A stretch of DNA of 64,000 nt from Candidatus Oxydemutatoraceae bacterium (GTDB lineage Bacteria > Pseudomonadota > Gammaproteobacteria > Poriferisulfidales > Oxydemutatoraceae): NCBI GenBank assembly GCA_965223735.1, contig OZ245010.1, forward strand, positions 916,924-980,923. Reading direction: 5' to 3'. Under the pieces are notes generated by a model that did not search any database, was not told where the DNA came from, and saw only the letters and a program-made list of their open reading frames with translations. Below are positions 22,290 through 50,520 of this stretch, one piece after another; the stretch's first letter is position 1, and every line of letters begins with the position of its first letter. Made by a program: the position numbers and the translations under genes.

Positions 22290-22565
22290 AAAGGAAACCG
22301 ACATGCCGGTCCAGCACGTCAGCTTCCGCCTCAAAGGTTTCTATAAAATCGCCTCTTTATCTACCAAATGGGAGGCGATTATGGGGACTGTAGCCCAACA
22401 GAAACTTGAAGCCCTGACATTCTGGAACAAACACGGCCTGAATGTCACCTTTGATGCATTATAATAACCGGCGCCCATACCGGGGACTCGACAACCTGAC
22501 ACCCAGCCAAATGCTTGCCAAAAATCTGCCCCTGATGTCCCATATGTGGCGGCCGCATACAAGAG
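22290..22565 (+). mobile_element. internally deleted IS481-family element (copy 1)
   Basis: Transposase N-terminus (..FRLKGFYKIASLSTKWEAIMGTVAQQKLEALTFW..) is fused to the extreme 3' end (..nrrphrgldnltps..). Homologous to 24215..24600. Confidence 0.55.
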
Positions 22566-22589
22566 TAAGTATTATCAAGGTATAAAGTT

Positions 22590-23651
22590 ATGTACATCAA
22601 CCAAACGGAACACAAAATACTTTTTGGAGATTCAAGGAATCTAAGTGAAATTCAGGATAAATCTATTGATCTGGTTGTTACTTCACCTCCATATCCTATG
22701 ATAATTATGTGGGATGAGGTATTTTTTGAACAAAATCAAAGGATCAAAGAAAATATTAATAATGAAGATGGATATACTGCCCATACACTAATGCATGAAG
22801 AACTCAATAAAACATGGAAAGAGGTTGACAGGGTTCTGAAAGAAGGCGGCATTGTTTGTATAAATATAGGAGATGCAACAAGAACAATGAATGGCACATT
22901 CAAATTATACCCAAACCACTCACCAGTACTTGAAACATTTTTATCCCTTAGTTTTGATTCACTTCCAACAATTCTGTGGAGAAAGACAACAAATTCTCCC
23001 AACAAATTTATGGGATCCGGCATGCTGCCAGTCGGAGCATATGTAACATTAGAGCACGAAAGGATTTTAATTTTTAGAAAAAAAAGAAAAAGGAAGTTTA
23101 TTGGAGATAAAGAAAAGGAGAATAGGATGAAAAGTGCGTTCTTTTATTCAGAGAGAAATAAATGGTTTTCTGATATATGGGATGATATAAAAGGAACTCA
23201 ACAAGCATTAAAAGAAAAAGGGGTAAGAGAAAGAAGCGGGGCGTATCCATTAGAACTGCCATATAGGTTAATTAATATGTTTTCCGTGAAAGGCGATACA
23301 GTGCTTGACCCATTTCTTGGGACGGGTACCACCTCTGCCGCAGCAATTATCACAGGAAGAAACAGTGTAGGAACAGAAAAAGAGAGAAAATTTGAAAAAA
23401 TTATCGATAAAACAATTACTCACTTTATCAACAATGCGGAACATTTAGTACAGAAGCGTATGGATACTTATATAGACTTTATAGAACAAAGAGAAAGGAA
23501 TGGAAAAATGTGTAAGTATAAAAATATATTTTACTCATTTCCTGTAGTTACTAAACAGGAACAAAAAATATGCTTTGAAGTTCCCACTGAGAAGGTAAAA
23601 AATGGATCGGAAAATTTTTTGATCTCTCATGAGTTTTTTAGTTACAAATAA
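22590..23651 (+). CDS. beta-class amino DNA methyltransferase (N4-C or N6-A)
   Basis: LVVTSPPYPM (motif IV) and LDPFLGTGTTSAAA (motif I). 353 aa, AT-rich. Confidence 0.75.
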   Translation: MYINQTEHKILFGDSRNLSEIQDKSIDLVVTSPPYPMIIMWDEVFFEQNQRIKENINNEDGYTAHTLMHEELNKTWKEVDRVLKEGGIVCINIGDATRTMNGTFKLYPNHSPVLETFLSLSFDSLPTILWRKTTNSPNKFMGSGMLPVGAYVTLEHERILIFRKKRKRKFIGDKEKENRMKSAFFYSERNKWFSDIWDDIKGTQQALKEKGVRERSGAYPLELPYRLINMFSVKGDTVLDPFLGTGTTSAAAIITGRNSVGTEKERKFEKIIDKTITHFINNAEHLVQKRMDTYIDFIEQRERNGKMCKYKNIFYSFPVVTKQEQKICFEVPTEKVKNGSENFLISHEFFSYK

Positions 23652-23965
23652 ACCACTATTCCATCTCTTTTCTTTTCATAAGAAATAATCCTACACGGTA
23701 TTGTTTCTCTAACTCTACTCATCTGTTTATAAGTTTCTGGTTTTATACTAACAGGCATATCATCTATATATCCGTCAATACCACGCGATTCATCATATGG
23801 AGTTGCCAAACGATACTGAGTACTCTCTATCTCAGCAACCTTTTTTAATATTGCTTCTTGAAAGCGCAGTCCGGCAAATGTTTTCGCAATGATTAAATCT
23901 TTTACCCAACGCCTCACTATCTTTTTATCTACCTTGCTTACAGCTTCTTTTAGATTTTCTACCAT
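23642..23965 (-). CDS. small hypothetical protein convergent with the MTase (candidate nuclease/controller; unassigned)
   Basis: 107-aa ORF overlapping the MTase stop tail-to-tail. AT-rich. Weak D..DD...SIK pattern only. Confidence 0.25.
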   Translation of the reverse strand: MVENLKEAVSKVDKKIVRRWVKDLIIAKTFAGLRFQEAILKKVAEIESTQYRLATPYDESRGIDGYIDDMPVSIKPETYKQMSRVRETIPCRIISYEKKRDGIVVYL

Positions 23966-24214
23966 TGGAAAATTTTCTCAACCGCATCATCCAAGGCAGT
24001 AGGGTACCTATTTCTATACTATTTCTCCCATTCACTAATCTTCTTCCCAGAAAATTGTTGTATTAAATCACTCATCTGACCAATCACCTTTGGGCGGGTA
24101 CCTTGTGCATTTTGGTTCGCGAGATTAAGCAGTTGTGTAACGTACTTTGGAAACTTAATATTTTCAATATCAAGCAATGCATTAACCTCTTCGTTTTTTA
24201 TTTTTACTTTTTTC

Positions 24215-24600
24215 TGAAGCCGACATGCTGATTCAACACATCGGCTTCCGCCTCAAGAGTTTCTATAAAATCGCCTCTTTATCTGCTAAATGGGAGGCGA
24301 TTATGGGAACTGTAACCCAACAGAAACTTGAAACCCTGACATTCTGGGACAAACGCGGCCCCGATTGTACTTCAGGGCCACCCTTGACGCATTCAAGGTC
24401 AGCCGTTCCACCCTGTATCGCTGGCGCCAGGCCTACCGCATCGCGGGCTTGAGCGCGCTGCATGACCGCAACCGTTACCCAGGTCGCTATAATAACCGGC
24501 GCCCGCACCGGGGACTCGACAACCTGACACCCAGCCGAATGCCTGCCAAACGTCTGCCCCTGATGTCCCATAAGCGGCGGCCTCATACGCCGAATTGACT
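24215..24600 (+). mobile_element. internally deleted IS481-family element (copy 2)
   Basis: N-terminal fragment, then HTH (RSTLYRWRQAYRIAGLSALHDR), then the extreme C-terminus of the rve core (YNNRRPHRGLDNLTPS) in ~380 bp. Confidence 0.6.
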
Positions 24601-24674
24601 ATGAAGCGACATTCGCTTATCGTACGCCGCACGCTGGTTCTCCGACCGGCTTCTTTTGACCACCGAACAAGCTT

Positions 24675-25877
24675 ATGTTAATGGACGTATTGACCGGCAT
24701 CGGCCTGCTGAATTTGCCGTGGTGGGGCTACATCGCCATCACCCTGATAACGACGCATATCACGATCGCCTGCGTGACACTTTTCCTGCATCGCTCCCAG
24801 GCGCATCTCTCGGTGGAATTTCACCCCGCGGTGACGCACCCGATGCGCTTCTGGCTGTGGATGACAACCGGCATGATCACGCGCGAGTGGGTCGCGATCC
24901 ACCGCAAGCACCATGCCACGGTGGAAACCGAGCACGACCCGCACAGCCCGAAAATACACGGCATCCTGAAAGTGCTGTTCGGCGGTACCGAACTCTATCG
25001 CAGGGAAGCCGCCAACAAAGACACGCTCGAAACTTACGGACGCGGCACACCGCAGGACTGGATTGAAAAAAATCTCTACACCAAACGATCGACCGGAGGC
25101 ATTTGTATACTTTTCGGCGTGTATTACACACTGCTCGGCTTTTGGGGCATCGCGATGTGGGCGGTGCAGATGATGTGGATTCCGTTTTTTGCCGCCGGCG
25201 TGGTCAACGGCGCCGGGCATTTCTTCGGATACCGCAACTACGAGACCGACGACAACTCGACCAATCTGGGTAACATCGGCCTGCTCATCGGGGGCGAGGA
25301 ACTGCATAACAACCACCACGCTTTCCCGGGGTCAGCGAAATTGTCGGCGCAGGCCTGGGAATTTGATATTGGCTGGCTGTACATCAACCTGCTGAAACAC
25401 TTGCGGCTGGCGTGCGTCAAAAGAGTGATGCCGCCGCGCAAAGTCGCGCGGCGCGTGTCGCGCCTTGACTTGGAAACCGTACAGACGCTTCTGCACGGAC
25501 GCCTGCACGTGATGGCGGACTACGTGAACACCGTCATGCACCCCGTGTTCAGGCAGGAACTGAAACTCGCAAAAGGCTCCTACCTGCGCCTTCTGAAAGG
25601 CGTGAAGAAGCCGTTTCTCTATCACGAAAAAAACATCGGGCGCCACGACCTCAACCGCCTGAAAGAAGCGCTAGTGGACAACGAAACACTGAAAACGGTT
25701 TATGAGTTCAGGCATCGCCTGCAATCGCTGTGGCACGATCTGCGCGGCGACCACGAAAAGCTAAGAGTTGCGTTGCTCGAATGGTGCTGGCAAGCCGAAC
25801 AAAGCGGTCTGCACGCGCTTGAGGAATTTGCCCGCAAGATCAAAGGCTGCACCGAGATCAGGCAGACCCCCGCCTGA
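24675..25877 (+). CDS. membrane fatty-acid (acyl-CoA/acyl-lipid) desaturase
   Basis: His boxes HRKHH and HNNHH with N-terminal TM helices. 400 aa. Confidence 0.8.
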   Translation: MLMDVLTGIGLLNLPWWGYIAITLITTHITIACVTLFLHRSQAHLSVEFHPAVTHPMRFWLWMTTGMITREWVAIHRKHHATVETEHDPHSPKIHGILKVLFGGTELYRREAANKDTLETYGRGTPQDWIEKNLYTKRSTGGICILFGVYYTLLGFWGIAMWAVQMMWIPFFAAGVVNGAGHFFGYRNYETDDNSTNLGNIGLLIGGEELHNNHHAFPGSAKLSAQAWEFDIGWLYINLLKHLRLACVKRVMPPRKVARRVSRLDLETVQTLLHGRLHVMADYVNTVMHPVFRQELKLAKGSYLRLLKGVKKPFLYHEKNIGRHDLNRLKEALVDNETLKTVYEFRHRLQSLWHDLRGDHEKLRVALLEWCWQAEQSGLHALEEFARKIKGCTEIRQTPA

Positions 25878-25981
25878 GTGCCGCCCGAAAACCGCGTTAT
25901 TTCAATTGAAATGCAGCCGCCCGCCAAGCGCGGACTGTCCGGTAAATTGCCGGGATGAATAAGCAACGGGACCGGGATTCG

Positions 25982-26143
25982 TTACTTGATCTTGCCTTCC
26001 TTGTAAAGCGTGTGCTTGCGGATAACCGGGTCAAATTTCTTCATCTCAATCTTTTCCGTCGCCGTCCGCTTATTCTTCGTCGTCGTGTAGTAATGCCCGG
26101 TCCCTGCGGTCGAGACCAGTTTTATCTTTTCGCGTACAGCCAT
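25982..26143 (-). CDS. rpmG: 50S ribosomal protein L33
   Basis: [53 protein letters not shown]. Below the 60-aa ORF-track cutoff. Confidence 0.8.
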
Positions 26144-26168
26144 GGTTCGGTGCCCCCCCGGAGTATCC

Positions 26169-26405
26169 TCAGACCTTGATCCCGCGCTTGCGCGCGTCGT
26201 CGAGCGCCGCCTCTATTCCTTTTTTATTGATGATGCGCAAGCCTTTTCTCGACACGCGCAATCTCAACCAGCGGTTCTCGCTCTCGACCCAGAACCTCAT
26301 CTTGTGCAGGTTCGGCAGAAAACGCCGGCGGGTTTTATTGTGCGCGTGAGAGACATTATTGCCGCTCATCGGCTTTTTACCGGTTATTTGGCAGATTCTC
26401 GACAT
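26169..26405 (-). CDS. rpmB: 50S ribosomal protein L28
   Basis: [33 protein letters not shown]. Confidence 0.9.
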
Positions 26406-26470
26406 TAATTCAGTCCCTAGTCTCTCGACTGGCGGCGCAAAATAGCAGAAAATAACCCGACCATCAAGCC

Positions 26471-26821
26471 ATGGACACTGTTTTTCTGAAAGAACTGCGC
26501 GTCGAAACCGTCATCGGCGTCTTTGAATGGGAGCGGCGCGTGCCGCAGACCATCCTGATAGACCTCGAGATGGCGACGGACGCGGCGGCAGCGGCAAAAA
26601 GCGACGAGTTGCAGGACACACTCGACTACAAGGCAATCGCCAAGCGCGTTGAGGACTTCTCCAAGAACAACCCCTGCCGCCTGATCGAAACACTGGCACA
26701 GAAAATCGCCGACATTCTGCTCGACGAATTCAACGTAGCGCAGGCAAAAGTCTCGGTGAGCAAGCCGGGCGCGATCCGGGGCTCGAAAACCGTCGGCGTC
26801 TCAATCGAGAGGCGAAAGTAA
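26471..26821 (+). CDS. folB: dihydroneopterin aldolase
   Basis: 116 aa. ..[21 protein letters not shown]... FolB pattern. Confidence 0.8.
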
Positions 26822-26902
26822 GTCGGAACCACTTTGAACTTTCGCGGAACAGGCGCACGCGGAAAAATCGAAAGACGAAAGCGGGTCGGAGCAACTCCCG
26901 AT

Positions 26903-27409
26903 ATGTCGAAAACAGGCAAGCAGACAGTCTATGTCAGTATCGGCAGCAACATAGACAAAAAACATAACGTCATCTCGTGTATCGCGATGCTACGGGAAAC
27001 TTTCGGCGAATTGAAATTATCCCCGGTGTATGAATCCCGGGCGGTCGGCTTCGACGGCGACAATTTTTACAATCTGGTCGCGTCCTTTGAAACCGCACAA
27101 TCGCCCCGCCACGTGGAAAACGCGCTGAAACTGATTGAGGAACGCCACGGCCGCAGGCGCGGCAAGAACCGCTTTGAGTCAAGAACGCTTGACCTCGACC
27201 AACTGTTGCACGGCGACTTGGTGATTAATGAAAACGGCGTCCGGATACCGCGCGATGACATCGTACAGCACGCTTTCGTTTTGCGTCCGCTCGCCGATCT
27301 CGCGAGCCGGGCGATGCACCCGGTACTCGGCAAAACCTACGCCGGTCTGTGGTCGGATTTCAACCGCGACGCAACAGTGCTCAAGCGAGTTTCACTCGGG
27401 GACATTTAA
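26903..27409 (+). CDS. folK: 6-hydroxymethyl-7,8-dihydropterin pyrophosphokinase
   Basis: TVYVSIGSNI...PVYESRAVGF...RTLDLDQLL... HPPK motifs. Start at the internal Met. Confidence 0.85.
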   Translation: MSKTGKQTVYVSIGSNIDKKHNVISCIAMLRETFGELKLSPVYESRAVGFDGDNFYNLVASFETAQSPRHVENALKLIEERHGRRRGKNRFESRTLDLDQLLHGDLVINENGVRIPRDDIVQHAFVLRPLADLASRAMHPVLGKTYAGLWSDFNRDATVLKRVSLGDI

Positions 27410-27489
27410 GCGTGGGCCGCCCGGTGCCCGCGAATAGGCAATCCGGCCAGGCGCATCGCCGCTCGATCACCCGGGCTGATCACCCGAAC

Positions 27490-28245: not shown

Positions 28246-28318
28246 TTGAATGCGGTCTCGCTTATACTCTCGTGCAATTACCATCAATTAAATCACATCA
28301 GACACACCGACTCTCCCG

Positions 28319-35378: not shown

Positions 35379-35495
35379 TCGAGCGTGCGGCCGTTATTGC
35401 GGCGAAAGCAACAGCAGACAGAACCACAACGATGGGGCAGATGAATCACCCTCTTTCATAGACGGGTGATGCCGCCGGAGCGGGAGAAGAAATGA

Positions 35496-38024
35496 TCACG
35501 CTGCATCAGCCTGATCCTGTCGTATCAGTCTTTCGAATTCCTTCCGGAAGTTGTCCTGAAACAGCATGCTTAAAGACATGCGGTGTTTTTTCCGCTTACT
35601 GCCGGAAAACTTCAAGGTGCCGTATTCCACCGCGTGCGGTTCCGCCGTTTCCAACACTTCGAACAGCTTCTTCTTGTATTCGGTATCGGCATTGCCGGCC
35701 AATTGCAGTCCCTTTGTCTCGATTGCCAGAACGCGCCGGGTATTGCCGTTCCCTCGCTCCACGCAAACGACGAAGTCGGGATATATACGGTTGCGCTTCC
35801 AACCCTGAAGACCGTAATCCTGCCTCGCGGCGAAGCGATGCCACCATGCAACGGCATTGTAACCATCCAGATAAATGGCAAAGTCTTTTTCCAGACCATT
35901 GAATTCCCTGGCATATACCTTTTCGTACAGGGATTTCTCCAAAGGATTCCCATGTTGGCCGAAGAGCGGTAACTGATCTTTTTCCACCAACTTCCTCAAT
36001 TTCTGCTCAAACTCAAACTCGCTCTCGTCGGCGACCAATTCAAACCGGATATCGTGGTTCCGCAACTTGCGGTGAAATATGGTTTGTGCTTCACACTCAA
36101 CAAGTTCAGCCAAGCGCCGTTTCAGGATCTCGGAAAGGTGGTAGCGGCGGTCGAAAATATCGTCTTCCGTACGCCCCTGACCGCGAAGTGAATCCAGCGT
36201 CTTCCCCACGGCCTGTCCCGCCAAAAACGGATTCGGCAAAGTCTCGTAAATACGGCGGCTGAAAAACTCCACAGTGAGCACCTTCTCCACCTCCAGTTTC
36301 TCTTCATCGGTATCGTAGTCAAACCCTGGCAGATCGACGAGAGCGGTGATCTCTCGAATTTCATCTATTGCGGAATAATTCACATCCAACGGCGCCTCCG
36401 CAATCGCGTTCCAGTCAACTCCGCCCAAGATATCGTTTTCATAGTCCAGCGGCCGATAACGCCTGCCGGCGCGATGCAGTACTTGCGGCAGAAAAATCCG
36501 CATGTCGCGGAACCGCTCTCGCCTACGGCTGACGATCAATTGGCTGCCGTCGCCGTTTTGGTTTCTGCCCGACCCGCCACGGATAAATTCAGCCAAGTCG
36601 CTCATGCCTTCCTGTTCCAGCCCCCGCTTGACGTCAACTATTGCCTCCCCGACGTCGCGGTCAAAGCAATAGATATACGACTCATCGAGCTTCGCCCGTC
36701 CGGTCAGCTCCGCATCGGGTTGCCGAAGAACACGCCCGGTCATTTGCGTCAGGGCACGGGTCGTGCTGGTGGAATCGAGCAACGTAAGCACGTAGGCAAA
36801 AGGGCAATCCCACCCTTCGCGCAGCGCGTCCTTCGTCAGGATATAACGGACGGAGGAATAAGGCGAAAGCAGATCCTCATCGGCGATCTCGTCTTTTTCC
36901 GCCGTTTTTCGCCGGATGTGGTTTTCGGGCACCCGCAATTGTCTCATCAGGTAGTCGCGCACGTCCTCGGCATGAATATGTTGGCCATCTCGCTGATCGC
37001 GCCCGACGCGCTCCACGCAGACCAGCATGATCGGACGGATGTAGCGCCCGCTCTCCCCCATCAATTTGCGCGCTTCCTGCTCCAGGCGGCCCAGCCGCTC
37101 CTTGGCCTTGGAGAGCGTGTACTTCCAGTCGGCTTTCTCGAAGTTGTGTATGTTCAGCGGCAACTTGATCATCTCCTCACGCTTCAACGCCGCGCCGCCA
37201 ACGTCCACCAGAATGTTGCTGACACTCGCTTCTGGGGTTGCGGAAAGTTCCAATATGAAACGCGGGTTGAGCTCGTTGAGGCGCGCGCGGCGGTTCTCGG
37301 TATAGGTGTTGTGCGCTTCATCCAGAACGATGATAGGACGGGCTATTTTAAGCACGTTGAACAAGCTGTGCTTGACTGACCCCGGCTTGCCGTCAACGAT
37401 GTCGGTGACTTTCAAATCGGGGTGTTGCTTGATCAATTCATCATTTGCCGACTTGTCGTCTGGCTCTGGAAAAAACGAAGGATAGTGTCCGGTATCCCGA
37501 AAGATCTTAAGAAAGTTCTGGTCTTTCCTATCAGCCGCCTGCAACATGACCGGCATCACGCACAGATGATTTTCCACGTCGGCGAGCGAGAACGGATCAG
37601 TCTTTCTCAACAACTTGACCCTTCCACCACAGGCGCGTTCAAGCGATTGGCGGTAGGGATGCAGGCGATGTGCAAGCGCGCGCCAGGTCTGCCGGAAAAT
37701 AGCGCGCGACGGCGTGATCCAGAGCACCAGCCCGGCAGCCGGCTTCATCCGTTCAATGGCGGCCGCCCCCAATAAGGTCTTGCCGCCGCCGGTCGGTAAC
37801 TTCATGCAAACGTGGGGAATTATCCGGCCATGTTCGTCTTGCCGCCTGACATAAGGGGACGGCGACAAAGCGCCGCTCTTATCTTTGACATGAGGCAAAA
37901 GACCGCGCCGCCCCAGCTCTTCCCAAGTCTTTGCAAAATAATCCCGATCGCTCTCGCCGATAGGCAGGTCGGCGTCCTCCAATGCTTTGATGCGTTTTTT
38001 TGCCTCGTCCTTCTGTTTTTTCAA
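35496..38024 (-). CDS. SF2 helicase (Type III restriction Res-like) with C-terminal PD-(D/E)xK nuclease domain
   Basis: Motif I LPTGGGKT, motif II VLDEAHN, motif III SATP. C-terminal YPDFVV...LAIETKG (PD...ExK). 842 aa, co-directional and immediately downstream of the RT gene. Confidence 0.65.
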   Translation of the reverse strand: MKKQKDEAKKRIKALEDADLPIGESDRDYFAKTWEELGRRGLLPHVKDKSGALSPSPYVRRQDEHGRIIPHVCMKLPTGGGKTLLGAAAIERMKPAAGLVLWITPSRAIFRQTWRALAHRLHPYRQSLERACGGRVKLLRKTDPFSLADVENHLCVMPVMLQAADRKDQNFLKIFRDTGHYPSFFPEPDDKSANDELIKQHPDLKVTDIVDGKPGSVKHSLFNVLKIARPIIVLDEAHNTYTENRRARLNELNPRFILELSATPEASVSNILVDVGGAALKREEMIKLPLNIHNFEKADWKYTLSKAKERLGRLEQEARKLMGESGRYIRPIMLVCVERVGRDQRDGQHIHAEDVRDYLMRQLRVPENHIRRKTAEKDEIADEDLLSPYSSVRYILTKDALREGWDCPFAYVLTLLDSTSTTRALTQMTGRVLRQPDAELTGRAKLDESYIYCFDRDVGEAIVDVKRGLEQEGMSDLAEFIRGGSGRNQNGDGSQLIVSRRRERFRDMRIFLPQVLHRAGRRYRPLDYENDILGGVDWNAIAEAPLDVNYSAIDEIREITALVDLPGFDYDTDEEKLEVEKVLTVEFFSRRIYETLPNPFLAGQAVGKTLDSLRGQGRTEDDIFDRRYHLSEILKRRLAELVECEAQTIFHRKLRNHDIRFELVADESEFEFEQKLRKLVEKDQLPLFGQHGNPLEKSLYEKVYAREFNGLEKDFAIYLDGYNAVAWWHRFAARQDYGLQGWKRNRIYPDFVVCVERGNGNTRRVLAIETKGLQLAGNADTEYKKKLFEVLETAEPHAVEYGTLKFSGSKRKKHRMSLSMLFQDNFRKEFERLIRQDQADAA

Positions 38025-38192
38025 CTCGGAAAGACAACTTTCAAATGTTTCGAGGGCCTGTTCCTGAAACTCCTTGGGCGCACCGCTCAGTCTCCAAAAA
38101 GACGGTGGATGGCATAGGGCAACTGGCAGAAGGTCACTGATATGCGAGATGGATACGGACTTTTGTTCGGCAGCTTTTGGGTAGGTGGCTAC

Positions 38193-40343
38193 TCAATTAC
38201 TAGCAAAAATGTTCGCAATACCATCAAGTGCGTTTTTCAGTTTCGGCACCAATTTGTCTCGCTCTTTCTTATTAAGCCACTTATTTTTTTCGCCTCCTTT
38301 ATGATCGTATGGATGAGAACTTGGCAATGTGTTTCTTCTCTCATGCAGGATTCGGAACACTTCTGCCTCAGACGGGTAAGTGATATCGAATGGAGTGCGT
38401 ACCGCAATAAGAGAACCATAGTTGACACGGTTTCCGCGCCTGTCTTCTGTTTTTGAATGTCCATTGAGTCCTTTTTGCTTGAGAAAATCAAAGAACTGGC
38501 AAACAACTAGATTATTGAAACTATCCTGGGACATTAGCCATTCAGAACGGGCACTTTCAAAGTGTGCTTTCGCTTCTATCAGAATTTGCAGTGCGTGTTC
38601 GTATTCTTCACCAAGCAGCTTATGCCAAATTGATGAGTGTTGGCAACCATAGCGCTCTACCAGAATATCCTTGATATAATCTTTCTCAGCTTTGTGGTGA
38701 CGTCGAATCACCCCAAGAGAACGCAGGGCGATTTTACAATGTCCAGGCAGGTTTCTCTGACGCAACTGAAGTGCATTAAGCGTAACTTCTCGACTTTGCA
38801 ATACACGCGCACCAGCCAACTGTTCCATCAGGTTGCCTTTTAACAGGGTAACAGCGTGCTTCTTAAATTCCTGATCGCTTAATCTGAATTCCTGATTACT
38901 TAATATTATCGGTGCAAGAAGGCTGCGACTGATCGAATAATGTTCCTTTGCAAACCGTTTACTAGTACGGGCAGGCCCTTCACATTTCATGAGGAAATGC
39001 CTCACGCCCCAGGATAAAGCCATACAATGTGATTTGTTTCCAGCATCCTTCCGTGCAATTGGGAGACCACGTCGTAATTCTTCTGGTCCAGCAAGTCGCG
39101 CAATAACATGCCAAAGTTCACCGCGAACGTAGGAATAAGGCACTCCTGTCTCCAAGTAATCAAGTGCTACTCTGGCAATAGTTCGCCGTCTTTCAAAATT
39201 GTTGAAGTAAGCGATAAATGCATCGATGTGTTCCGGATGCCGAGGCAATAACCTAAGAACAGTTTTAAGTAATTCCGTATCTTTCGGTGCCCGATACATC
39301 ACATACCGGAATCGCGTCTTGTCTTTGACCTTCTGTGGCCTGCCACCTATCGCGGGCGTGAGAATGCTACGAGCTTTCTTTGCCGTTATAAACGATTCTG
39401 CAGAATTTCGGTTAGCCCTTGGTGGAATACTTGGTAATGCTCCCATCGCATCTGCGACTGACTTCATCTCACGTATTTCGAACTTTTTCCCTTGCGGTAT
39501 TAGGCCACGTTCATGGCATTTTTGTTCCAAGAGGATTGTTGCTTCCCTGACTTCATTTTCTGTGCGCCCAAACAGTCGAATATCGTCAACATAGCGCAGA
39601 TATTGAAATGGTTGTTTTTGTAAACTAATGTCAATTGGCAGGAAGAAAGCTTCTGCAAGGAAGTTTGACGCGACGGGGCCTTGCGGTATTCCATGATCTT
39701 TCATGGTGCCTTTATTTTCAGCTGACCATTTTCGCAACCATTTTTTCGCAATATCTCTCGCAATATCTCTGGTCTCTGCGCCGACTTGTGACTCAACCTT
39801 CAGCAAAAGATCATGCGATATTGTGTCGTAGAATGCAGACAAATCGAAATGTGCGGACCACTTGTACTCGTTATTAAATACTTCAATGCATTTTTCCTGA
39901 AAGGCGTGATACGTTGTTTGCCAGTGTTCCACGAAGAAAATGGAGCCCTTCTGAGCCAATAATTTATTGCTGAATACCGTCTTTAATTCCACACCTTGTC
40001 TTTTTTTATGCAATTTTTTTGCGAACAGATTAGCGATTGCTTGGAGAAGTATCTGATCTTCAATCCCAAGAAGTGATAGAGGTCTTTGCAACCCAGATGG
40101 CTTGGGAATATATAATCGTGTCGCGTAAGTAGGTTCCCATGCCTTTGCTTTTAGGTCTTTATGAAGTTGCTTGATGTGCTCATCAAGAGCACTTTCGTAA
40201 ACCAAGTAGGATGGACGAAAAAACCGTTTATACTGGAGGTTCGTGCCTGTATTGATCCGTCGCCACGCCAGCTTCAGGTTTTGAGTCGATATCAGAGATT
40301 TCCATTCCATAAGTGTACTTCCGATTCTGTATGAGGCCATCAC
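38193..40343 (-). CDS. Abi/UG-type (defense-associated) reverse transcriptase with ~400-aa C-terminal helical extension
   Basis: RT motifs 1-2 (YIPKPSGLQRPLSL), A (FDLSAFYDTI), B' (GIPQGPVASNFL) and C (YLRYVDDIRLFG). 716 aa, AT-rich. The first ~10 codons overlap an IS481-like end, so the true start may be the internal Met at ~40310. Confidence 0.75.
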   Translation of the reverse strand: MMASYRIGSTLMEWKSLISTQNLKLAWRRINTGTNLQYKRFFRPSYLVYESALDEHIKQLHKDLKAKAWEPTYATRLYIPKPSGLQRPLSLLGIEDQILLQAIANLFAKKLHKKRQGVELKTVFSNKLLAQKGSIFFVEHWQTTYHAFQEKCIEVFNNEYKWSAHFDLSAFYDTISHDLLLKVESQVGAETRDIARDIAKKWLRKWSAENKGTMKDHGIPQGPVASNFLAEAFFLPIDISLQKQPFQYLRYVDDIRLFGRTENEVREATILLEQKCHERGLIPQGKKFEIREMKSVADAMGALPSIPPRANRNSAESFITAKKARSILTPAIGGRPQKVKDKTRFRYVMYRAPKDTELLKTVLRLLPRHPEHIDAFIAYFNNFERRRTIARVALDYLETGVPYSYVRGELWHVIARLAGPEELRRGLPIARKDAGNKSHCMALSWGVRHFLMKCEGPARTSKRFAKEHYSISRSLLAPIILSNQEFRLSDQEFKKHAVTLLKGNLMEQLAGARVLQSREVTLNALQLRQRNLPGHCKIALRSLGVIRRHHKAEKDYIKDILVERYGCQHSSIWHKLLGEEYEHALQILIEAKAHFESARSEWLMSQDSFNNLVVCQFFDFLKQKGLNGHSKTEDRRGNRVNYGSLIAVRTPFDITYPSEAEVFRILHERRNTLPSSHPYDHKGGEKNKWLNKKERDKLVPKLKNALDGIANIFASN

Positions 40344-40450
40344 ATATGGGACAAATGAGGCAGATGTTTGGCAAGCATTTGGCTGGATGTCAAATTGTCG
40401 AGTCCCCGGTGCGGGCGCCGGTCATTATAGCGAGCCAGATACGCCAGCAG
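40344..40450 (-). mobile_element. IS481-family 3'-end remnant (copy 3) abutting the RT start
   Basis: Reverse complement is ~90% identical to 24490..24590. Confidence 0.5.
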
Positions 40451-40504
40451 ACGGGTGTTGAACTCCCGCACATCGCCAGGTAACAGCTCTTCCTCGTAGT
40501 TCAC

Positions 40505-40753
40505 TCATTCTTCCTGTACCGTGCGATTGAACCGTCCGTTGAGGGCATTCATGTTCGGGCTGTGCGGGCAGGTGTGGCAATGACACCACCCCCGCGCTTT
40601 CGTGTAGTCGGGAAAAGCCCCTTGAAATTCGGCGCCGTTGTCACTGAGCACTGGTTCAATGTGTCCTGGAAATACCGTTCCAACCAGCGCCGCGAAGCGC
40701 GACGCGTGGTGGCTGTTGTGGCGCGACACTGCCATCGCAAAAACGGCCGACAT
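40505..40753 (-). pseudogene. rve integrase-core fragment (IS3/IS481-like transposase remnant)
   Basis: ..SDNGAEFQG...CHTCPHSPNMNALNGRFNRTVQEE rve C-terminal pattern with no N-terminus. Confidence 0.45.
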
Positions 40754-41196
40754 GATCGGTCGCCGTGAAAATGTAGCGATGGGTACGATCGATCAGTGTT
40801 CCACTTCAGGCGCACCACCGTATCAAACGCGATGCAGTGACCCGGATAGTCAGCACGGACCTCTTGCCCAGACGTTGCTTCTAGTAGCGACGCCGCGGCT
40901 TGATCTTCTCTTTTAGCATTAAGCAAACCGAGGCGGAACGCATCTTGTCTGGCGCCTCGCCAACGCAGTCATTGCGGTGCAGGTTGCAGCAACCAGTCAC
41001 ACGGCAACTGCTACACAACCGGGTCACCGATCATCGGCAATGGCCGGGGAAGCGGCGCACGACGACCGGCGCCGCAACCGTGTAGCTCCGATCCCGGCCG
41101 GGCATGGTTGGTGAGAGTTGGGATATCCCAATCCACTCCGTGCAGCCTCGATCCTGGCCGGGCATCCTTTGCACTAGCAGACCACAGCTACCGGCC

Positions 41197-41400
41197 GATC
41201 GCGCGATGATCAATGTCGCGACGACCTGGCGGATCTGGCAGTGACGGCGTCACCGGCCGATCGCGCGATGACCGATGTCGCGACGACTTGGCGGATCTGG
41301 CGGTGATGGCGTCACCGGCCGACCACGCGATGATCAATGTCGCGACGACCTGGCGGATCTGGCAGTGACGGCGTCACCGGCCGATCGCGCGATGGCCGAT
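41197..41400. repeat. ~63-bp tandem repeat (about 3.3 copies) derived from the purD 3' terminus
   Basis: Unit caccggccgatcgcgcgatgatcaatgtcgcgacgacctggcggatctggcagtgacggcgt repeats head to tail. The first partial copy is the real purD C-terminus (..[11 protein letters not shown]). Confidence 0.75.
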
Positions 41401-42651
41401 GTCGCGGCGGCAGAACGCCCCCGGCCAACTGATTTCCCCACAAGCGCGATAGGCGCCGGATTGAGCACCAGCAACGGTATCCGCAAGCACCGTCACGCAC
41501 AGCACGCGCCCGCCCGCAGTCACCACTTCGTCGCCGCGCATCCGCGTCCCGGCATGAAACACCTTGACCGCATCGTCGCCGACAGCATCCAGCCCGGTGA
41601 TCACCTCGCCTTTTTCATAAGCCGCCGGATAGCCCCCGGCCGCCATCACGACGCCAAGCGCCGTCCGCTCGTCCCATTCGGCGCATGCGCCGTCGAGCCT
41701 GCCGGCCAGCGCCAAGCGACAAAGTTCGACCAAGTCTGAACGTAACCGCATCAAAATAGGCTGCGCTTCAGGATCCCCCAACCGGCAATTGAACTCGAGT
41801 ACCGACGGACGCCCGGCGCCGTCGATCATCAAGCCCGCGTAAAGAAACCCGACAAACGGCGCACCTTCCTGTCTCAGGCCGTCCACCGCGGGCTGCATCA
41901 CCTCGTCCAGCACGCGCCTCTGCAAAGCATCATCCAACACCGGCGCCGGTGAATACGCGCCCATGCCGCCGGTGTTCGGCCCGCGGTCGCCTTCATCCCT
42001 CGTCTTATAATCTTGCGAAGTCGCAAGCGGCAACACGTGTTCACCGTCAACCATGCAGATGAAACTTGCTTCTTCTCCCCGCAAAAACTCCTCGACCACA
42101 ATGCGCCTGCCGGCGTCTCCGAAATCGGCACCCGAAAGCATGCCACGCGCCGCGTCGATCGCCTGCGCACGAGTATCGGCAACCACCACGCCCTTGCCAG
42201 CCGCCAAACCGTCAGCTTTAACGACCACCGGTAGTTTGCAGGTTTCAAGATAAGGTAGCGCCGCGCTTTCGGCATCGAACACCCCGAAGTCCGCGGTCGG
42301 AATGCCGTGACGACGCATGAACGCTTTGCTGAACTCCTTGGACCATTCGAGTTTTGCCGCCGCGCGCGTCGGGCCGAACACAGCGAGATCGCGTTGCTGA
42401 AAATATTCGACGATGCCCTGCGCAAGCGGCGCTTCGGGGCCGACGAGCGTCAGGTCAACGCCCTGCCGCGACGCAAAATCCCGCAATGCATCAAAGTCGA
42501 GCACGTCGAGCTCAAGATTCTCGACCCCGTCTTCACCGGCGGTTCCGGCGTTCCCCGGCGCCACATACACCTGTTCGACCGACGGGCTTTGCGCGATCTT
42601 CCATGCGAGCGCGTGCTCCCTGCCGCCGGAACCGATGACAAGCACTTCCAT
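41374..42651 (-). CDS. purD: phosphoribosylamine--glycine ligase
   Basis: [19 protein letters not shown]-terminus. Confidence 0.9.
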
Positions 42652-42662
42652 CGACGATCGCG

Positions 42663-44258: not shown

Positions 44259-44301
44259 CGGGCAAACTTAAAACGCGATTATAGCCCGAACGCCGGGGTC
44301 A

Positions 44302-45210: not shown

Positions 45211-45225
45211 AATTTATAAAAACTA

Positions 45226-45240
45226 TCAATTCTTTATTGA
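45226..45240. promoter_or_regulatory. candidate LysR-type T-N11-A box (TCAAT-N5-ATTGA) in the divergent lysR promoter region
   Basis: Perfect inverted repeat tcaat tcttt attga, 16 bp upstream of the lysR start and 100 bp upstream of the divergent gene. Confidence 0.35.
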
Positions 45241-45340
45241 CAATAGATTTTACAGAAAATAGTATCCGTTTTGCAAGGTCGGCGGCGACGATCCGAACGG
45301 CGGCACGGCAGCAGCACAGCGTCAAGGCAGGGGGGATCTT

Positions 45341-45850: not shown

Positions 45851-45924
<74 letters not shown>

Positions 45925-46165
45925 CCGAATAGGAACGCATAGTTTACCAGCCTCAAAGAGTTAAGTATCACCCTTCATTATCTTCGCCATCGCGCCCGTA
46001 AAGGCTTTGTCATGCTCAACTCGCCGAATTGTTCCCAGCCTTCCGCAATAAATTGTTGGGGGCCAAAATCCATTCGGATTGCAGACGGATCACACGGCGA
46101 GCCAGTCAGTACCTCACAAATCAGGCGTTCCAAGTTACGTTCAGAAATGTCAGCAGGCGATGGCG

Positions 46166-46694
46166 TTATGGGGGTTGCCAACCAAAACTTGCCTTCAGTT
46201 CTCGAAGCATTTCAAATGTACTGACACACGGAACGTGAAATTGTCTGCATACATTGGGCAACGAGATACATCTTTGGGCATCAGGCGTGTATGCTTCCTG
46301 TGTTACCACGGTATGCCCATACACCTTGGCATAAGCGGCAAGCCAACCATCCGCTTTATCAGCAAACTCTGCTTTTGCATCGTCTTTGAATTGTCCGTGC
46401 CCAATAACCCATCGCATTATTTGTTTAAAAACATCATTAACTTCCGGGGGATCGGTTGGTTGAAAAAATGAATCAGATAATGCCGCCCATGTTCTCAGAT
46501 TTTCAGCCACGTTCTCCGGTATGTTTCCCGCAAGGACCTCTCCACGAACCCTGTTGATACTTACCACTCGTTCAGTTTAGTGATAAAAAATCAAACATTC
46601 CCAAAAACCGGGGGCAGAGGTCAAACGCATAGTAACGACGGCACGCTTCTATAAAAACATTGGCATCAAGTACATAAATTGGCGCCTGGTTCAT
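46166..46694 (-). pseudogene. DUF4411-family (PIN-like) toxin-type gene, frameshifted
   Basis: N-terminus MNQAPIYVLDANVFIEACRRYYAFDLCP (DUF4411 start) from the ATG at 46694. Frame is lost at homopolymer runs (ccccc, ttttt) near 46575-46600. C-terminal part ..ADGWLAAYAKVYGHTVVTQE..LPNVCRQFHVPCVSTFEMLRELKASF lies in another frame (listed ORF 46166..46567). Confidence 0.55.
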
Positions 46695-46699
46695 TGTAT

Positions 46700-47848
46700 T
46701 TAAAGATTGATGCGCCGCGCAAACTCGTCAAAAGTTGCACCTTTCATTCCAGTCAAAGAATAAGCGTCCTGATAAAGCAATCTCCCCTCTTTTGTAGCGC
46801 GCACGATCGCGCTACCGAACCGACGCCCAACGCGCACATTCTGATTGTTCCAAAAATCCCCGCCGCTGCGCGTTTTCCGTCCTTTTTGCTGAATGTTGTC
46901 CCGGTATCCACGGTAGAACTCAATAAACTCCGTGCGGCTGATCAAACCAATATCCAGTAGTCTGCGAGCGATGACCAAAGAACTGACTTTGAATTGGCGG
47001 GCAAGAAATTGATATGCATTCCCACTCCGTTCAGCTTCTTGCCACAATTGATGCAACTTATCGGTCGGCACCAGAAATTCAGCTGCAACTTGGTCGCAAA
47101 ATCTTTCTTCAGCAGCTTCAGTCGGCAGCAAGTTGTCAAAATTGGACACTCCCTCTTGCCCAAGCCAGAGATGCGCCATCTCATGCGCAAACGTGAACAT
47201 CTGCGCGCCTTTGAAATCGGCATTGTTGATGAAGATCAGCGGCGCATAACTATCGCCCAAGGCAAAGCCTTGAAACTCTTCTACGTCCAGTTTTCGGCGT
47301 GTGTTGTTGCCCACCACACCATTGATCATGACCAGAATGCCTGCGTCTTCGGCGTCTTGACGCAGGCTTCGCAAGGCATCAGACCAAGACTCTTGTTGTC
47401 GCGCCCAACTATCGTCAACCCTCAAAACGGCACGCATGTCAACTGCCACTTGTTCCGGTTGGCTGTTCAAAGTGGCATTACCTACAAAACCCAGAGGATC
47501 TGCACCTTCCTCAACCAGATATTCCTTCATCCACGCTTGCCTGCGTTGCATTGTGTGCACTGTGTCCAGCAGATCAGGGCTTGGGCGTTGCAATGGAGCA
47601 TTGCCCACGGTGCGAAAATCAGGAATCGACAACCTGTCCTCAAGCGGTTCACGCAAGTACAAATAGCCCAACGGCGTGTGAGTATGATGAGCCAGATTTT
47701 CAACCTGCTTCACGCTCAACTCACCGCGTTGCTCCCACTCAAAAACACGCTTCGGCTTTACCCCCACTTTTTTGGCCAGATCCGCTTCACTCAGGTACGC
47801 GCGCGCTCGCGCCCATTTCAGTACAGACGGTTGCAGGGAAATATTCAT
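46700..47848 (-). CDS. XRE-family HTH fused to ImmA/IrrE-family metallopeptidase
   Basis: N-terminal HTH (..LAKKVGVKPKRVFEWE..) and HEXXH site FTFAHEMAHLWLG. Confidence 0.8.
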   Translation of the reverse strand: MNISLQPSVLKWARARAYLSEADLAKKVGVKPKRVFEWEQRGELSVKQVENLAHHTHTPLGYLYLREPLEDRLSIPDFRTVGNAPLQRPSPDLLDTVHTMQRRQAWMKEYLVEEGADPLGFVGNATLNSQPEQVAVDMRAVLRVDDSWARQQESWSDALRSLRQDAEDAGILVMINGVVGNNTRRKLDVEEFQGFALGDSYAPLIFINNADFKGAQMFTFAHEMAHLWLGQEGVSNFDNLLPTEAAEERFCDQVAAEFLVPTDKLHQLWQEAERSGNAYQFLARQFKVSSLVIARRLLDIGLISRTEFIEFYRGYRDNIQQKGRKTRSGGDFWNNQNVRVGRRFGSAIVRATKEGRLLYQDAYSLTGMKGATFDEFARRINL

Positions 47849-47875
47849 GGCACGGTCACTTTATTCCAGCAGAAC

Positions 47876-48376
47876 TCACGTTAGTGCGTCGCAAGAACCA
47901 GCCATATTTTCTGCGGCTGGCGCACCGCCCAGTTCATAAATAAACACCTGCACATCCGTCAGTTGCTCCATCGCAGATTCAATGCATAGCCTGACTTCAT
48001 CCCAGTCCAGGCCGCCCAATCCGCAACCCAAAGGCGGAATTGCGACTGAACGAATATCATTCACCCGAATGGTTCTGACCAAGTCCTTGAAGCCCGATTC
48101 AATATCGCTTATACGGGTCTTGCCACGCCAATGCCTTTTGGTGGGAAAGTTGATGATGTAATAAGGACAGGTCAACCAACCGGTTTCATACACGAACATT
48201 TGTCCGGGTTGAACTTTCTCCCGCCTGCAAGCCGTTGCATACGCTTTGAAGTTGTCCGGGTAAGATTTTTTGAACTGCAATGCAATGCCGCGCCCCATGA
48301 CGCCAACGCAATTGACTGTGTTCACAAGCGCCTCGGTATCGGCTTTGAGGATGTCACCAGTGGTTAATTCAAGCAT
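47876..48376 (-). CDS. macro-domain (ADP-ribose-binding/processing) protein
   Basis: DTEALVNTVNCVGVMGRGIALQF...SVAIPPLGCGLGGLD macro fold motifs. 166 aa. Confidence 0.75.
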   Translation of the reverse strand: MLELTTGDILKADTEALVNTVNCVGVMGRGIALQFKKSYPDNFKAYATACRREKVQPGQMFVYETGWLTCPYYIINFPTKRHWRGKTRISDIESGFKDLVRTIRVNDIRSVAIPPLGCGLGGLDWDEVRLCIESAMEQLTDVQVFIYELGGAPAAENMAGSCDALT

Positions 48377-48389
48377 GGATGCCTCTTGC

Positions 48390-48734
48390 TTAGTAATACC
48401 AATCTGGTTTTATTGCAAAGCGCGGGGCACGTTCGCTCGTCGCCAATGCATCTGATACCTGATTATAGACTGCCCGTACACAAACCCTGATAGGCATGAC
48501 CGACCAAGGGCAAAAATAAAACGGCACGCAATCACCTACACGCAAGTTCGGATGACTGGTCAATCCCTTTTGTAACCATCGGCGTTTAATGTGGTTCAAG
48601 CCGATGGTTGTACCAGGTAAACCGCACCGGACCACCTCGGCGTCACACCACAAAAATCCACTTGCAATAATCGACGGCAGTCAGTTTATATGAACGATGT
48701 GATAGATTTTCGGTTGCCCTAGGATAGCATTCAT
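48390..48734 (-). pseudogene. DarT-like (DUF4433) ssDNA ADP-ribosyltransferase toxin remnant with in-frame TGA and apparent internal deletion
   Basis: MNAILGQPKIYHIVHIN-TGA-LPSIIASGFLWCDAEVV...GDCVPFYFCPWSVMP...DWYY*. KIYHIVHIN.LPSI and VPFYF match, as far as I recall, the conserved DarT N-terminal motifs. Only ~114 codons. Confidence 0.4.
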
Positions 48735-48803
48735 GTACTGCCAAAGGAATGAAAAGCAGAATCATGCATTATATTCTTTTCATTACCGACCAATAAGCAA
48801 CGT

Positions 48804-49433
48804 ATGACTGATCTCGAAAAAACAGCCCAAACTCCGACTCCAGTTGATAGTTCAAAGTTCAACACTCATTGCGAGTTGCCTTACGGCTTGGAAACAGATC
48901 ATATAGCTCAGGCGATGAAAGAGTTCATCGATTTTCTTGGGTTCCTTAATCAACAGCTAAGTACGAAAGGATTGCCACGGCTCGAAAGCTTTCTGATGCC
49001 CGCTAATTTTAGCGGCATTGTCGGTGAATTCATGAATCTCAGAATTCCTGAACATTGTCTCGGGTTAGTGAAAAATCAGTACCATAATGGCCACCCGGAT
49101 TTAATTCCGTCCGGTCATTTTCCCGATGATGCAGTTCAATATTCAGACGAGGGGGTAGAAATTAAAGGCTCGCGCCGTTCGAGTGGATGGCAGGGCCACA
49201 ACCCGGAGGCTGTATGGTTAATGGTGTTTCATTTTGATAGCAATACATCTAATGACGAGCATAAGAAAATTCCACCAAAACCGTTTCAATTCAAGGGCGT
49301 ATATGCTGCAAAACTTGAAAGTGACGATTGGTCATTTTCAGGACGGTCTGCAACCAGCCGACGGACAATAACCGCGAGCGTGAAACACAGCGGCGTTACA
49401 AAAATGAAGAATAACTGGGTGTATAAGTTCTAA
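48804..49433 (+). CDS. candidate Type II restriction endonuclease (PD-(D/E)xK)
   Basis: GHPDLIP...DEGVEIKGS (PD...ExK). AT-rich and convergent with the MTase below, overlapping it by 4 bp. Confidence 0.4.
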   Translation: MTDLEKTAQTPTPVDSSKFNTHCELPYGLETDHIAQAMKEFIDFLGFLNQQLSTKGLPRLESFLMPANFSGIVGEFMNLRIPEHCLGLVKNQYHNGHPDLIPSGHFPDDAVQYSDEGVEIKGSRRSSGWQGHNPEAVWLMVFHFDSNTSNDEHKKIPPKPFQFKGVYAAKLESDDWSFSGRSATSRRTITASVKHSGVTKMKNNWVYKF

Positions 49434-50368
49434 GCCAATGATAGATACTGCTGAGATTCAAATTCACTCGGTTGCGCCAGCCTTGGTATAGCGCTCTCTG
49501 CGAGCTCATAATAATCACGATACCTCTCAATACCGATACACGAGTAACCAATAGATTCAGCGGCGGCCACGGTTGAACCTGAGCCCATGAACGGATCTAT
49601 AACCACGCCCTCACCCAGCGGGAGCGACGCATAAACGATCTGCCTGAGAAATGACTGGGGTTTAAGGCTCGGGTGGTCTGCTATCCCACGTTCTTCCTGA
49701 GGTGTACGCTCGCTGTATATAACGTCCTCAAACGGATTGCCGTCAGGTTTTCGGCGAAGACCGCCTGTCTGAAAAGTTGCAAGGCAGTCGCTGACCTTCA
49801 TGTTTTTGGGCAACGGCTTTCTGAAGATGCCCCATGGTTCATAGCATCCGCGTGGCATTGAACAAACACCAGAATATTGTTCTTCGGCGTTCTTTGGGCG
49901 GTCGCCACCCCTCAATGTTCGCACGACTCGTATTACGTTCCCGCGATATTCAAGCCCTGAATCCGAAATTGCTGAAAAAATCAATTGAGACAAGAATGAA
50001 TTTGAGGCGACGAATACATGCCCCCCTGGACGAACTGCACGAAATGCGGCCCGTGCCCATTCAAAGAAGAATCTCTTCAGCGAAGCACGTTCTTTTTCAT
50101 TCAGCGCCGTAAACCGTGGCAAAGGAGACCGGGCGCTTCCATCAAATGACGGGGGGAGACGCCAAATTCCGCCATGTCCATTGGCGCGTTTCTCCAGTTG
50201 GTCAAAATCATATTCTTTAACCCCGTATGGGGGATCTGTCACAATGCCATGGACGCTATTTTCGGCGATCCTGCCAAACCACTCCAGACAGTCGGCATGC
50301 ACAATCAAAGAGTTACCAACCATTCTGGATGGATAATCCAAAGAGAAGGAATTTAACTGGCTGCCCAT
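49430..50368 (-). CDS. beta-class amino DNA methyltransferase (N4-C/N6-A)
   Basis: IVTDPPYG (motif IV) and DPFMGSGSTVAAA (motif I). Start set at the internal Met because the listed ORF (to 50503) reads into the IS481-like remnant. Confidence 0.7.
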   Translation of the reverse strand: MGSQLNSFSLDYPSRMVGNSLIVHADCLEWFGRIAENSVHGIVTDPPYGVKEYDFDQLEKRANGHGGIWRLPPSFDGSARSPLPRFTALNEKERASLKRFFFEWARAAFRAVRPGGHVFVASNSFLSQLIFSAISDSGLEYRGNVIRVVRTLRGGDRPKNAEEQYSGVCSMPRGCYEPWGIFRKPLPKNMKVSDCLATFQTGGLRRKPDGNPFEDVIYSERTPQEERGIADHPSLKPQSFLRQIVYASLPLGEGVVIDPFMGSGSTVAAAESIGYSCIGIERYRDYYELAESAIPRLAQPSEFESQQYLSLA

Positions 50369-50454
50369 TCTGGATTCTTGGTTTCGGTTGAAATACCAAT
50401 GGTGATTAAAAGTAGCGCATTCTAGGAGATAAAGCAACCTGTCATTTCCGACCC

Positions 50455-50520
50455 ACCACATTACTGAAACGAACGAGGCAGATGTCTTGCAAGCATCCGG
50501 CAAGGTCTCAGCTTGTCGAA
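50455..50520 (-). mobile_element. IS481-family 3'-end remnant (copy 4, more diverged) upstream of the MTase
   Basis: gaggcagatgtcttgcaagcatccggc resembles gaggcagatgtttggcaagcatttggc at 40365. Confidence 0.35.

Follow-up and report, generated by a model that had tools for sequence, protein, structure and literature searches.

Why should four decayed transposable elements in one stretch of bacterial chromosome all point into the start of the next gene? The question is raised by a window of 64,000 nucleotides (the whole stretch of DNA analysed here; contig OZ245010.1 of assembly GCA_965223735.1, a Candidatus Oxydemutatoraceae bacterium), in which four remnants of an IS481-like insertion sequence (IS) are each followed by a gene start in the same orientation. 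The initial annotation proposed that the remnants were retained as promoter donors for horizontally acquired genes or, alternatively, that they mark the integration junctions of those genes. We consider it on balance probable that the shared orientation reflects the target choice of the clade to which the element belonged and not a promoter that the element carried, the remnants being IS481-family fossils. The geometry of this target choice was shown in relatives of the element and in one window copy, c2; it is extended to the other three copies, c1, c3 and c4, by extrapolation.

The limits of the copies were set by alignment to two full-length relatives from public assemblies (L001 and L002), together with a search for the terminal motif.

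c1, 22249–22561, + strand: 313-bp internal-deletion derivative with both terminal inverted repeats present
c2, 24217–24589, + strand: internal deletion; about 45 nt of the left end gone, the helix-turn-helix (HTH)-coding part and the last ~100 nt kept
c3, 40328–40964, − strand: 5'-truncated transposase pseudogene with most of the rve core retained and the right tip intact
c4, 50453–50616, − strand: diverged fragment of the last ~50 codons, cut at both ends

All four copies listed in the initial annotation exist, with corrected limits: c1 begins 41 nt earlier, and c3 does not lie at 40344–40450. The tip of the right terminal inverted repeat (IRR) is present in c1 and c3; the homology of c4 ends ~9 nt before the element tip. 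The internal deletion that had been ascribed to every copy is found in c1 and c2, but c3 is a frameshifted, 5'-truncated pseudogene and c4 an end-cut fragment. Nor is the whole catalytic core deleted throughout, since most of the rve core is present in c3, which aligns to residues ~112–322 of the 324-amino-acid (aa) full-length relatives and is legible across three frames (..YIFTATDHVGRF.., ..LSDNGAEF.., ..PNMNALNGRFNRTVQEE..), with at least three frameshifts and one in-frame stop. In c2, an 11-nt indel shifts the reading frame.

At the nucleotide level, c1 and c2 share two repeat pairs, one of 145 nt at 89% identity (22294–22438 and 24216–24360) and one of 101 nt at 91% identity (22460–22560 and 24488–24588); the 3' segments of both match 40328–40433 in c3, on the other strand, over 102–105 nt at 86%. 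Copy c4 was beyond the reach of the nucleotide repeat search and was detected at the protein level only, with 42–49% aa identity to the relatives over ~40–55 residues (tblastn, match 50452–50616) and a translation containing ...FNEHLPVTRMDWMYRFNSRRLRRGFDKLRPCRMLARHLP... The left terminal inverted repeat (IRL) of c1 is TGTATGAGGGCAGAAAC and its IRR ends ...GGCCGCATACA; the reverse complements of the IRRs are TGTATGCGGCCGCCACA in c1 and TGTATGAGGCCATCACA in c3. The remnant ends read TGTATG...CATACA, with inverted repeats that start 5'-TGT, and the terminal motif has four matches in the window against 0.59 expected. No target-site duplication is present at c1, where the left flank is gctgg and the right flank agagt, and a duplication shared by the left of c1 and the right of c2, as would be left by one IS split by a restriction-modification (R-M) module, was looked for and is absent.

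In all four cases the next gene is co-oriented with the remnant, as the initial annotation had noted, although the distances required correction. They are 28 bp from the c1 tip to a methyltransferase (MTase) ATG at 22590, 85 bp from the c2 end to a desaturase ATG at 24675, 17 bp from the c3 tip to a reverse transcriptase (RT) ATG at 40310, and ~84 bp from the c4 end to a second MTase ATG at 50368. The RT start had been placed on a GTG at 40343, which falls within the IS; public gene calls agree on 40310. Under random orientation, four of four has a probability of 1/16, which is not significant alone.

The 'IS481-like' label is acceptable. In Pfam, the reconstructed remnant protein matches HTH_28 and rve_3, and its full-length relatives match HTH_32, rve and rve_3. 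Of the NCBIfam models, IS481 scores best, although the 184–199 bits fall short of its 224-bit cut-off. The closest full-length relative, P0001, has 65% protein identity, and the closest named IS is ISKpn28, annotated on plasmids as 'IS481-like element ISKpn28 family transposase' (PGAP). The records for the source contig itself contain a single relative, the 226-aa fragment P0002, and no intact one, so that, going by them, the element looks extinct in this genome. A search of genome contigs for close copies with a mini-protein query gave one weak match, in an Arenicellales metagenome-assembled genome, and a degenerate DNA pattern of the conserved 3' coding stretch had no match in metagenomes.

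A separate feature of the 5' part of the element is a hairpin across an upstream ATG (22295–22327 in c1, 24218–24250 in c2 and ~95–130 in L001). It is retained in all three, the two arms of the stem having both changed (GAAGCCGA/TCGGCTTC versus GTAGCCAA/TTGGCTAC), and may control translation of the transposase.

Insertion beside sigma-70 promoters in relatives

Both full-length relatives, L001 and L002, resemble the window copies in being followed by a co-oriented gene, at distances of 23 and 75 bp from the transposase stop. A further 80 loci were fetched from metagenomes with a clade profile; the analysis covered 68 distinct right flanks and 58 left flanks. By crude open reading frame (ORF) calls, downstream neighbours were co-oriented in ~23 cases and opposite in 8, against ~14 and 15 for upstream neighbours. 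The co-oriented downstream genes are often housekeeping genes (leuS, greA, rplY (L25), rplK (L11) and ddl; also lrgA), which start within tens of nucleotides of the transposase stop, many of them ≤ ~40 nt from the tip.

All the elements encode a conserved C-terminal motif, ...GW.HT, and terminate just past its Thr codon (...CATACA). Outside the element follow 5 nt, a TTGACA-like hexamer, 16–18 nt and a TATAAT-like hexamer. Positions +6 and +7 are occupied by T in 91% and 88%, respectively, of the 68 right flanks, and position +8 by G in 78%; TTG stands at +6 in 51 flanks and in at most four at any other offset. When a sigma-70 match was defined as at least 9 of 12 consensus positions with the −35 hexamer exactly at +6, 43 of the 68 right flanks matched, compared with 0–1 at other offsets and none of the 58 left flanks. 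Perfect 5-bp target duplications were found at 10 of 58 loci (0.3 expected), and copies of the same IS have unrelated flanks yet all keep the motif (L016, L018, L022 and L046). Because of these duplications and unrelated flanks, the promoter-like motif belongs to the target DNA and not to the element. The same was seen in complete E. coli chromosomes, in which six copies of one IS (75% nucleotide identity to ISKpn28) occupy six sites. Five of these sites have a 5-bp duplication, a single base leaving the sixth ambiguous, and at five of the six TTG stands at +6.

Within the element, the transposase ORF meets no stop codon and runs through the IRR. It is closed by a TGA at +7 to +9, that is, by the TTGA of the −35 box, in 36 of the 68 right flanks, and elsewhere continues up to ~30 codons past the tip.

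Three of the six E. coli copies (L091, L092 and L095) adjoin hok, on what is expected from the hok/sok layout to be the sok-promoter side, and ISKpn28 is placed likewise in hok/sok on F-like plasmids (L089 and L090). At these insertions the tip lies 5 bp from TTGCCT, TTGCAA or TTGCTC. Insertion between hok and the presumed sok promoter would separate hok from its own promoter and spare sok. The preference for promoter-adjacent sites is not absolute, since an ISKpn28 insertion within the mgrB ORF has been reported under selection with colistin (PMC6101004).

Taken together, these observations lead us to propose, tentatively and at somewhat less than even confidence, that a widespread clade of IS481-like elements, which takes in both the enterobacterial-plasmid element ISKpn28 and the window fossils, homes to sigma-70 promoters in one orientation, exactly 5 bp before the −35 hexamer (~−41/−37), leaving the core promoter intact and borrowing TTGA as a stop.

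Among the window copies, c2 preserves this arrangement.

24590–24623, + strand: original c2 target junction, ccgaa (5 nt) followed by the native desaturase promoter TTGACT-17-TATCGT

The junction catacg/ccgaa/TTGACT-17-TATCGT has a promoter score of 9 at +6 and reproduces the clade geometry to the base; the old transposase frame ends in ...PHTPN followed by a stop on TGA 24596–24598.

Explanations for the four window copies

On the reading we favour, elements of this clade integrate immediately before the −35 hexamer of a sigma-70 promoter, duplicating 5 bp of the target and turning the IRR towards the promoter. The promoter, along with its gene, thereby ends up downstream of the IRR and co-oriented with it, and the transposase stop is usually supplied by the TGA within TTGAca of the −35 box. 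The target could be read either from the DNA sequence alone or via a promoter bound or bent by RNA polymerase; if the −10 hexamer also matters, as its strong co-occurrence would suggest, target capture may read a promoter that the polymerase occupies or bends. Copies c1, c3 and c4 would have begun like c2 and then lost their original junctions as AT-rich defence cargo (R-M genes and a UG19-class RT) was exchanged alongside them in three variable islets, the copies decaying meanwhile by internal deletion, 5' truncation and frameshifts.

Several points weigh against this account. The canonical junction is found in c2 only, one of the four window copies. The flanks of c1 (agagtaagtat..) and c3 (gaatcggaagt..) have promoter scores of 4 and 3, which are background; c1 is without a target duplication and c4 without a tip. 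For these three copies the explanation is an extrapolation, and about one quarter of clade insertions are themselves non-canonical. The neighbour orientations come from crude ORF calls that were partly validated, and the Pfam-validated loci, 16 co-oriented and 8 opposite, do not differ significantly. In addition, the gaps of 28 bp between c1 and its MTase and of 17 bp between c3 and its RT have no room for separate promoters, which implies that these two genes, unless silent, receive their transcription from the remnants or through them. Transcription of the RT could come by read-through from purH-purD, which lie on the same strand. Copies c1 and c3 were either non-canonical from the start or had their original flanks replaced later, and the evidence fits both; replacement could have come about by transposase-mediated rearrangement, by recombination between copies or by deletion up to the gene start.

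The most durable alternative is that no mechanism is involved, the remnants being plain IS debris in variable hot spots and their co-orientation a product of chance and of the survival of intergenic insertions. The 1/16 probability given above allows for this, decayed genes abound locally (a split MTase, a truncated restriction endonuclease (REase) and half of a DarG gene), and the canonical junction is missing at c1, c3 and c4. Nonetheless, c2 fits the clade register (5 nt, −35 box and TGA stop) to the base, and in the relatives this register is overwhelmingly non-random; we regard simple debris as unlikely.

A role as promoter donors, in which the retained 3' ~100 nt would carry or complete an outward promoter for the adjacent acquired gene and be kept by selection, appears decidedly improbable. 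It would account for the retention of the 3' part in all four copies while the remainder varies, for the gaps at c1 and c3 that are too short for an independent promoter, and for the location of relatives a few tens of nucleotides before essential genes. The promoter beside the tip in relatives is target DNA, however, and the loss of the 5' side in three of three truncations has a p of only 0.125. At c2 the proposal is contradicted. The sequence TTGACT (24595–24600), 17 nt and TATCGT (24618–24623) ahead of the desaturase lies in backbone DNA outside c2; an IS-free relative has TTGACT-17-TATCGT before the same 400-aa desaturase; and homology between the window and the relative stops exactly at the c2 tip. 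As this predicted promoter lies outside the element and is conserved without it, the desaturase promoter is its own.

Promoter prediction at the other junctions gave the idea no support either. A consensus scan, which is a weak test, found one outward site in c1 (CTGACA-18-AAAAAT, 22496–22525), made of c1-specific bases, and no outward promoter-like site in c3 or c4 or common to the copies; the scan totals equal the shuffle expectation. By inspection, no hybrid promoter with a −35 in the IRR and a −10 in the flank was found at the c1 or c3 tip. The 84-bp gap between c4 and the MTase at 50368 holds a near-consensus ATGACA-15-TAGAAT, so positioned that this gene probably has a promoter of its own in the gap. 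The c4 end might also be read as a canonical junction with this promoter beyond it, although the IRR lacks its last ~9 nt and the spacer measures 15 nt.

The appeal to outward promoters known from IS481-family ends also concerns the wrong end. In Bordetella pertussis, the documented outward promoter of IS481, Pout, is situated a short way into the element from its 5' end and reads antisense to the transposase, and genes past the 3' end are affected by read-through from the transposase promoter or by rare hybrid promoters (PMC6161684). Such read-through does reach downstream genes and to that extent favours a promoter-donor role; c3 and c4 are without the element 5' end, where the transposase promoter would sit.

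The three islets and other features of the window

The window is chromosomal backbone (rho, purD, purH, a LysR regulator, bacA and folB among others), broken by low-GC patches. Comparison by blastn with loci L086 and L087 from a related genome (PurD 79% aa identical) delimits three islets specific to the window, each with one remnant at or near an edge.

Islet A, 21030–24589: between UDG and the desaturase promoter, where the relative carries a different 1.6-kb filler; contains a split MTase, c1, an intact MTase, a truncated MjaI-type endonuclease and c2
Islet B, 35388–41386: ~6 kb between rho and purD, ~200 bp in the relative; contains a type III restriction enzyme gene, a UG19-class RT, c3 and 62-bp tandem repeats
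Islet C, 45926–50699: ~4.8 kb between tRNA-Arg/cpYpsA and cytochrome c, 437 bp in the relative; contains a Peptidase_M78/HTH gene, half of DarG, a candidate REase, an MTase and c4

The genes next to the remnants are as follows.

21022–22210, − strand: N6/N4 DNA methyltransferase pseudogene, split in two ORFs, divergent from c1, AT-rich cargo
22590–23651, + strand: type II DNA methyltransferase, intact, 34% GC, cargo
23642–23965, − strand: MjaI-type restriction endonuclease, C-terminal two thirds only (Pfam profile positions 59–164 of 164)
24675–25877, + strand: fatty-acid desaturase, backbone gene, 400 aa, of equal length in the relative
35496–38024, − strand: type III restriction enzyme (Res) gene, islet B
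38193–40310, − strand: reverse transcriptase of the UG19 class (DRT-type), complete, 44% GC
49430–50368, − strand: type II DNA methyltransferase, at the edge of islet C

The GC content is 50–57% in the remnants, 59–62% in the backbone and 34–49% in the cargo, and AT-rich cargo begins exactly at the IRR tips of c1 and c3. As markers of integration junctions, the second role suggested in the initial annotation, the remnants qualify in part: one lies at or near one edge of each of the three islets.

These junctions might be taken to mean that the IS itself mobilised or recruited the defence cargo past its right end, by ISEcp1-style one-ended transposition or as a composite of c1, the R-M module and c2. 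The exact start of cargo at two IRR tips would be in keeping with this, as would the presence of a remnant in each islet and the arrangement of c1 and c2 as direct repeats around the MjaI-like R-M module. An ISEcp1-like alternative right end was searched for at the far edges of the islets and not found, the only other match in the window being inside bacA; the lack of a second IRR-like end beyond any islet argues against such capture. Moreover, there are no duplications around the units, c1 and c2 differ by 9–11%, the remnants have host-like GC unlike that of the cargo, and the c2 IRR faces the backbone. We consider capture very unlikely. That c1, and with it c2, might be a MITE-like (miniature inverted-repeat transposable element-like) non-autonomous element still mobilisable in trans, as its 313 bp with both inverted repeats and no transposase might suggest, is scarcely credible given that c1 has no target duplication and c2 no left tip, that their deletion junctions differ at ~10% divergence, that no intact clade transposase is on record from the source contig, and that the degenerate DNA-pattern scan of metagenomes found no copies.

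Several features of the islets and their neighbours were recorded in their own right. The C-terminal third of the desaturase matches DDE_Tnp_ISL3 (Pfam) both in the window and in L087 (14119–15321), at equal length. A reading of the gene as a pseudogene fused to an ISL3 fragment was rejected, as the 400-aa protein recurs in the relative with an identical Pfam pattern; being present in both genomes at equal length, the match is a conserved feature or a spurious profile match and not an IS remnant. A 'tRNA-???' with an anticodon of two bases, called by ARAGORN within the same gene (25540–25629), is most likely a false positive. In islet B, the UG19-class RT stands directly upstream of the type III Res gene (35496–40310, − strand), and no Mod gene was seen between rho and purD. 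The 62-bp tandem repeat, in 3.5 copies (41190–41409), overlaps the purD 3' end, and at the same place the relative has a 185-bp duplication of the purD 3' end. Islet C encodes a protein with Peptidase_M78 and HTH domains and RmrA/CapP-like matches (46700–48376, − strand). An ORF beside it matches the first 153 of 329 DarG profile positions; no DarT was seen.

Further away, 86-bp direct repeats (54413–54498 and 56813–56898, 97% identical), which are copies of the end of a purM-like gene, bracket a ~2.3-kb low-GC block that is absent from the relative, and a further 91-bp repeat pair lies within 56719–56995. A 68-nt direct repeat, 82% identical, occurs at 18519–18586, just upstream of a hydantoinase gene, and 43 kb away at 61412–61479.

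The window also contains a diversity-generating retroelement (7282–15895, − strand), with its RT at 7302–8405, a template repeat at 7282–7397 and variable repeats at 8882–8997 and 15019–15134, at the 3' ends of genes for FGE-sulfatase-domain proteins. Mismatches in the variable repeats fall on template adenines in 23 of 24 and 19 of 20 cases. Between the two targets lies a 1520-aa ORF (10250–14812, − strand) of low GC, made up of ~20 units of ~75 nt (25-aa repeats), with no solid Pfam match; in the relative, a protein of 248 aa encoded between UDG and the desaturase contains short repeats that resemble these. Inverted repeats flank the retroelement region (6486–6711 and 17405–17549; 100 nt and 41 nt, 87–88% identical), and 6486–6572 weakly matches an IS481-like transposase at its C-terminal motif (E = 0.002).

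Comparison with known systems

The remnants themselves are ordinary. What changes is their interpretation, from an adaptive one, in which promoters were kept for defence genes, to a mechanistic one, in which the elements went to promoters and decayed beside islets. A literature search found no report of promoter or −35 targeting by IS481-like elements, ISKpn28 included, although ISfinder and TnPedia, which were outside the search, may record the rule. If true, the promoter-adjacent rule would explain the placement of ISKpn28-type elements on resistance plasmids and beside hok/sok. It would also predict a regulatory effect, with UP elements and activator sites cut off and the core promoter spared, and would offer a computational promoter marker for uncultured bacteria as well as a tractable system for the reading of an asymmetric target by a transposase.

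The nearest named relatives are ISKpn28 and the E. coli element, which belong to the same transposase clade (41% aa identity to P0001). They have ends TGTGTAAG...CCCATACA, a length of ~1.09 kb, 5-bp duplications and an ORF that runs through the IRR, and are placed 5 bp before TTG-type −35 boxes, including the sok side of hok/sok. The window copies, by contrast, are distantly related to them and all defective.

IS481 of B. pertussis has the target NCTAGN and makes 6-bp duplications. Duplications of 6 bp are found in most IS481 members (PMC10045372). B. pertussis IS481 is of the same family as the elements described here and acts on its neighbours via outward transcription, read-through and hybrid promoters (PMC6161684); it differs in that its Pout is at the 5' end and antisense, whereas here the promoter at the 3' tip belongs to the target.

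The target rule has a close formal precedent in the ISAba32 subgroup of IS1202, whose orientation relative to XerC/D sites is fixed and whose distance from them is exactly 5 bp, equal to the duplication length (bioRxiv 10.1101/2022.12.17.520857). This subgroup has a related DDE transposase lineage and the same motif-adjacent geometry. There, it is the IRL that abuts the XerC/D site, while in the present clade the IRR abuts the −35 hexamer or promoter. Motif-adjacent insertion at a fixed distance and orientation, independent of the copy, holds for the clade, and in the window for c2 only.

ISEcp1 (IS1380 family) shows the arrangement of transposase, right end and co-oriented gene that is seen at c1 and c3, yet it carries its own promoter and mobilises the downstream gene via alternative right ends; neither an internal outward promoter nor an alternative end was found in the window. 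Among eukaryotes, the yeast long terminal repeat (LTR) retrotransposon Ty3 is guided by TFIIIB to the transcription starts of RNA polymerase III (Pol III). Ty3 shares with the clade a fixed promoter register and a safe site at which the gene is left intact, guidance by a host factor being a feature of Ty3. If homing to promoters via RNA polymerase proved true, the clade would do in bacteria what Ty3 does at the promoters of Pol III.

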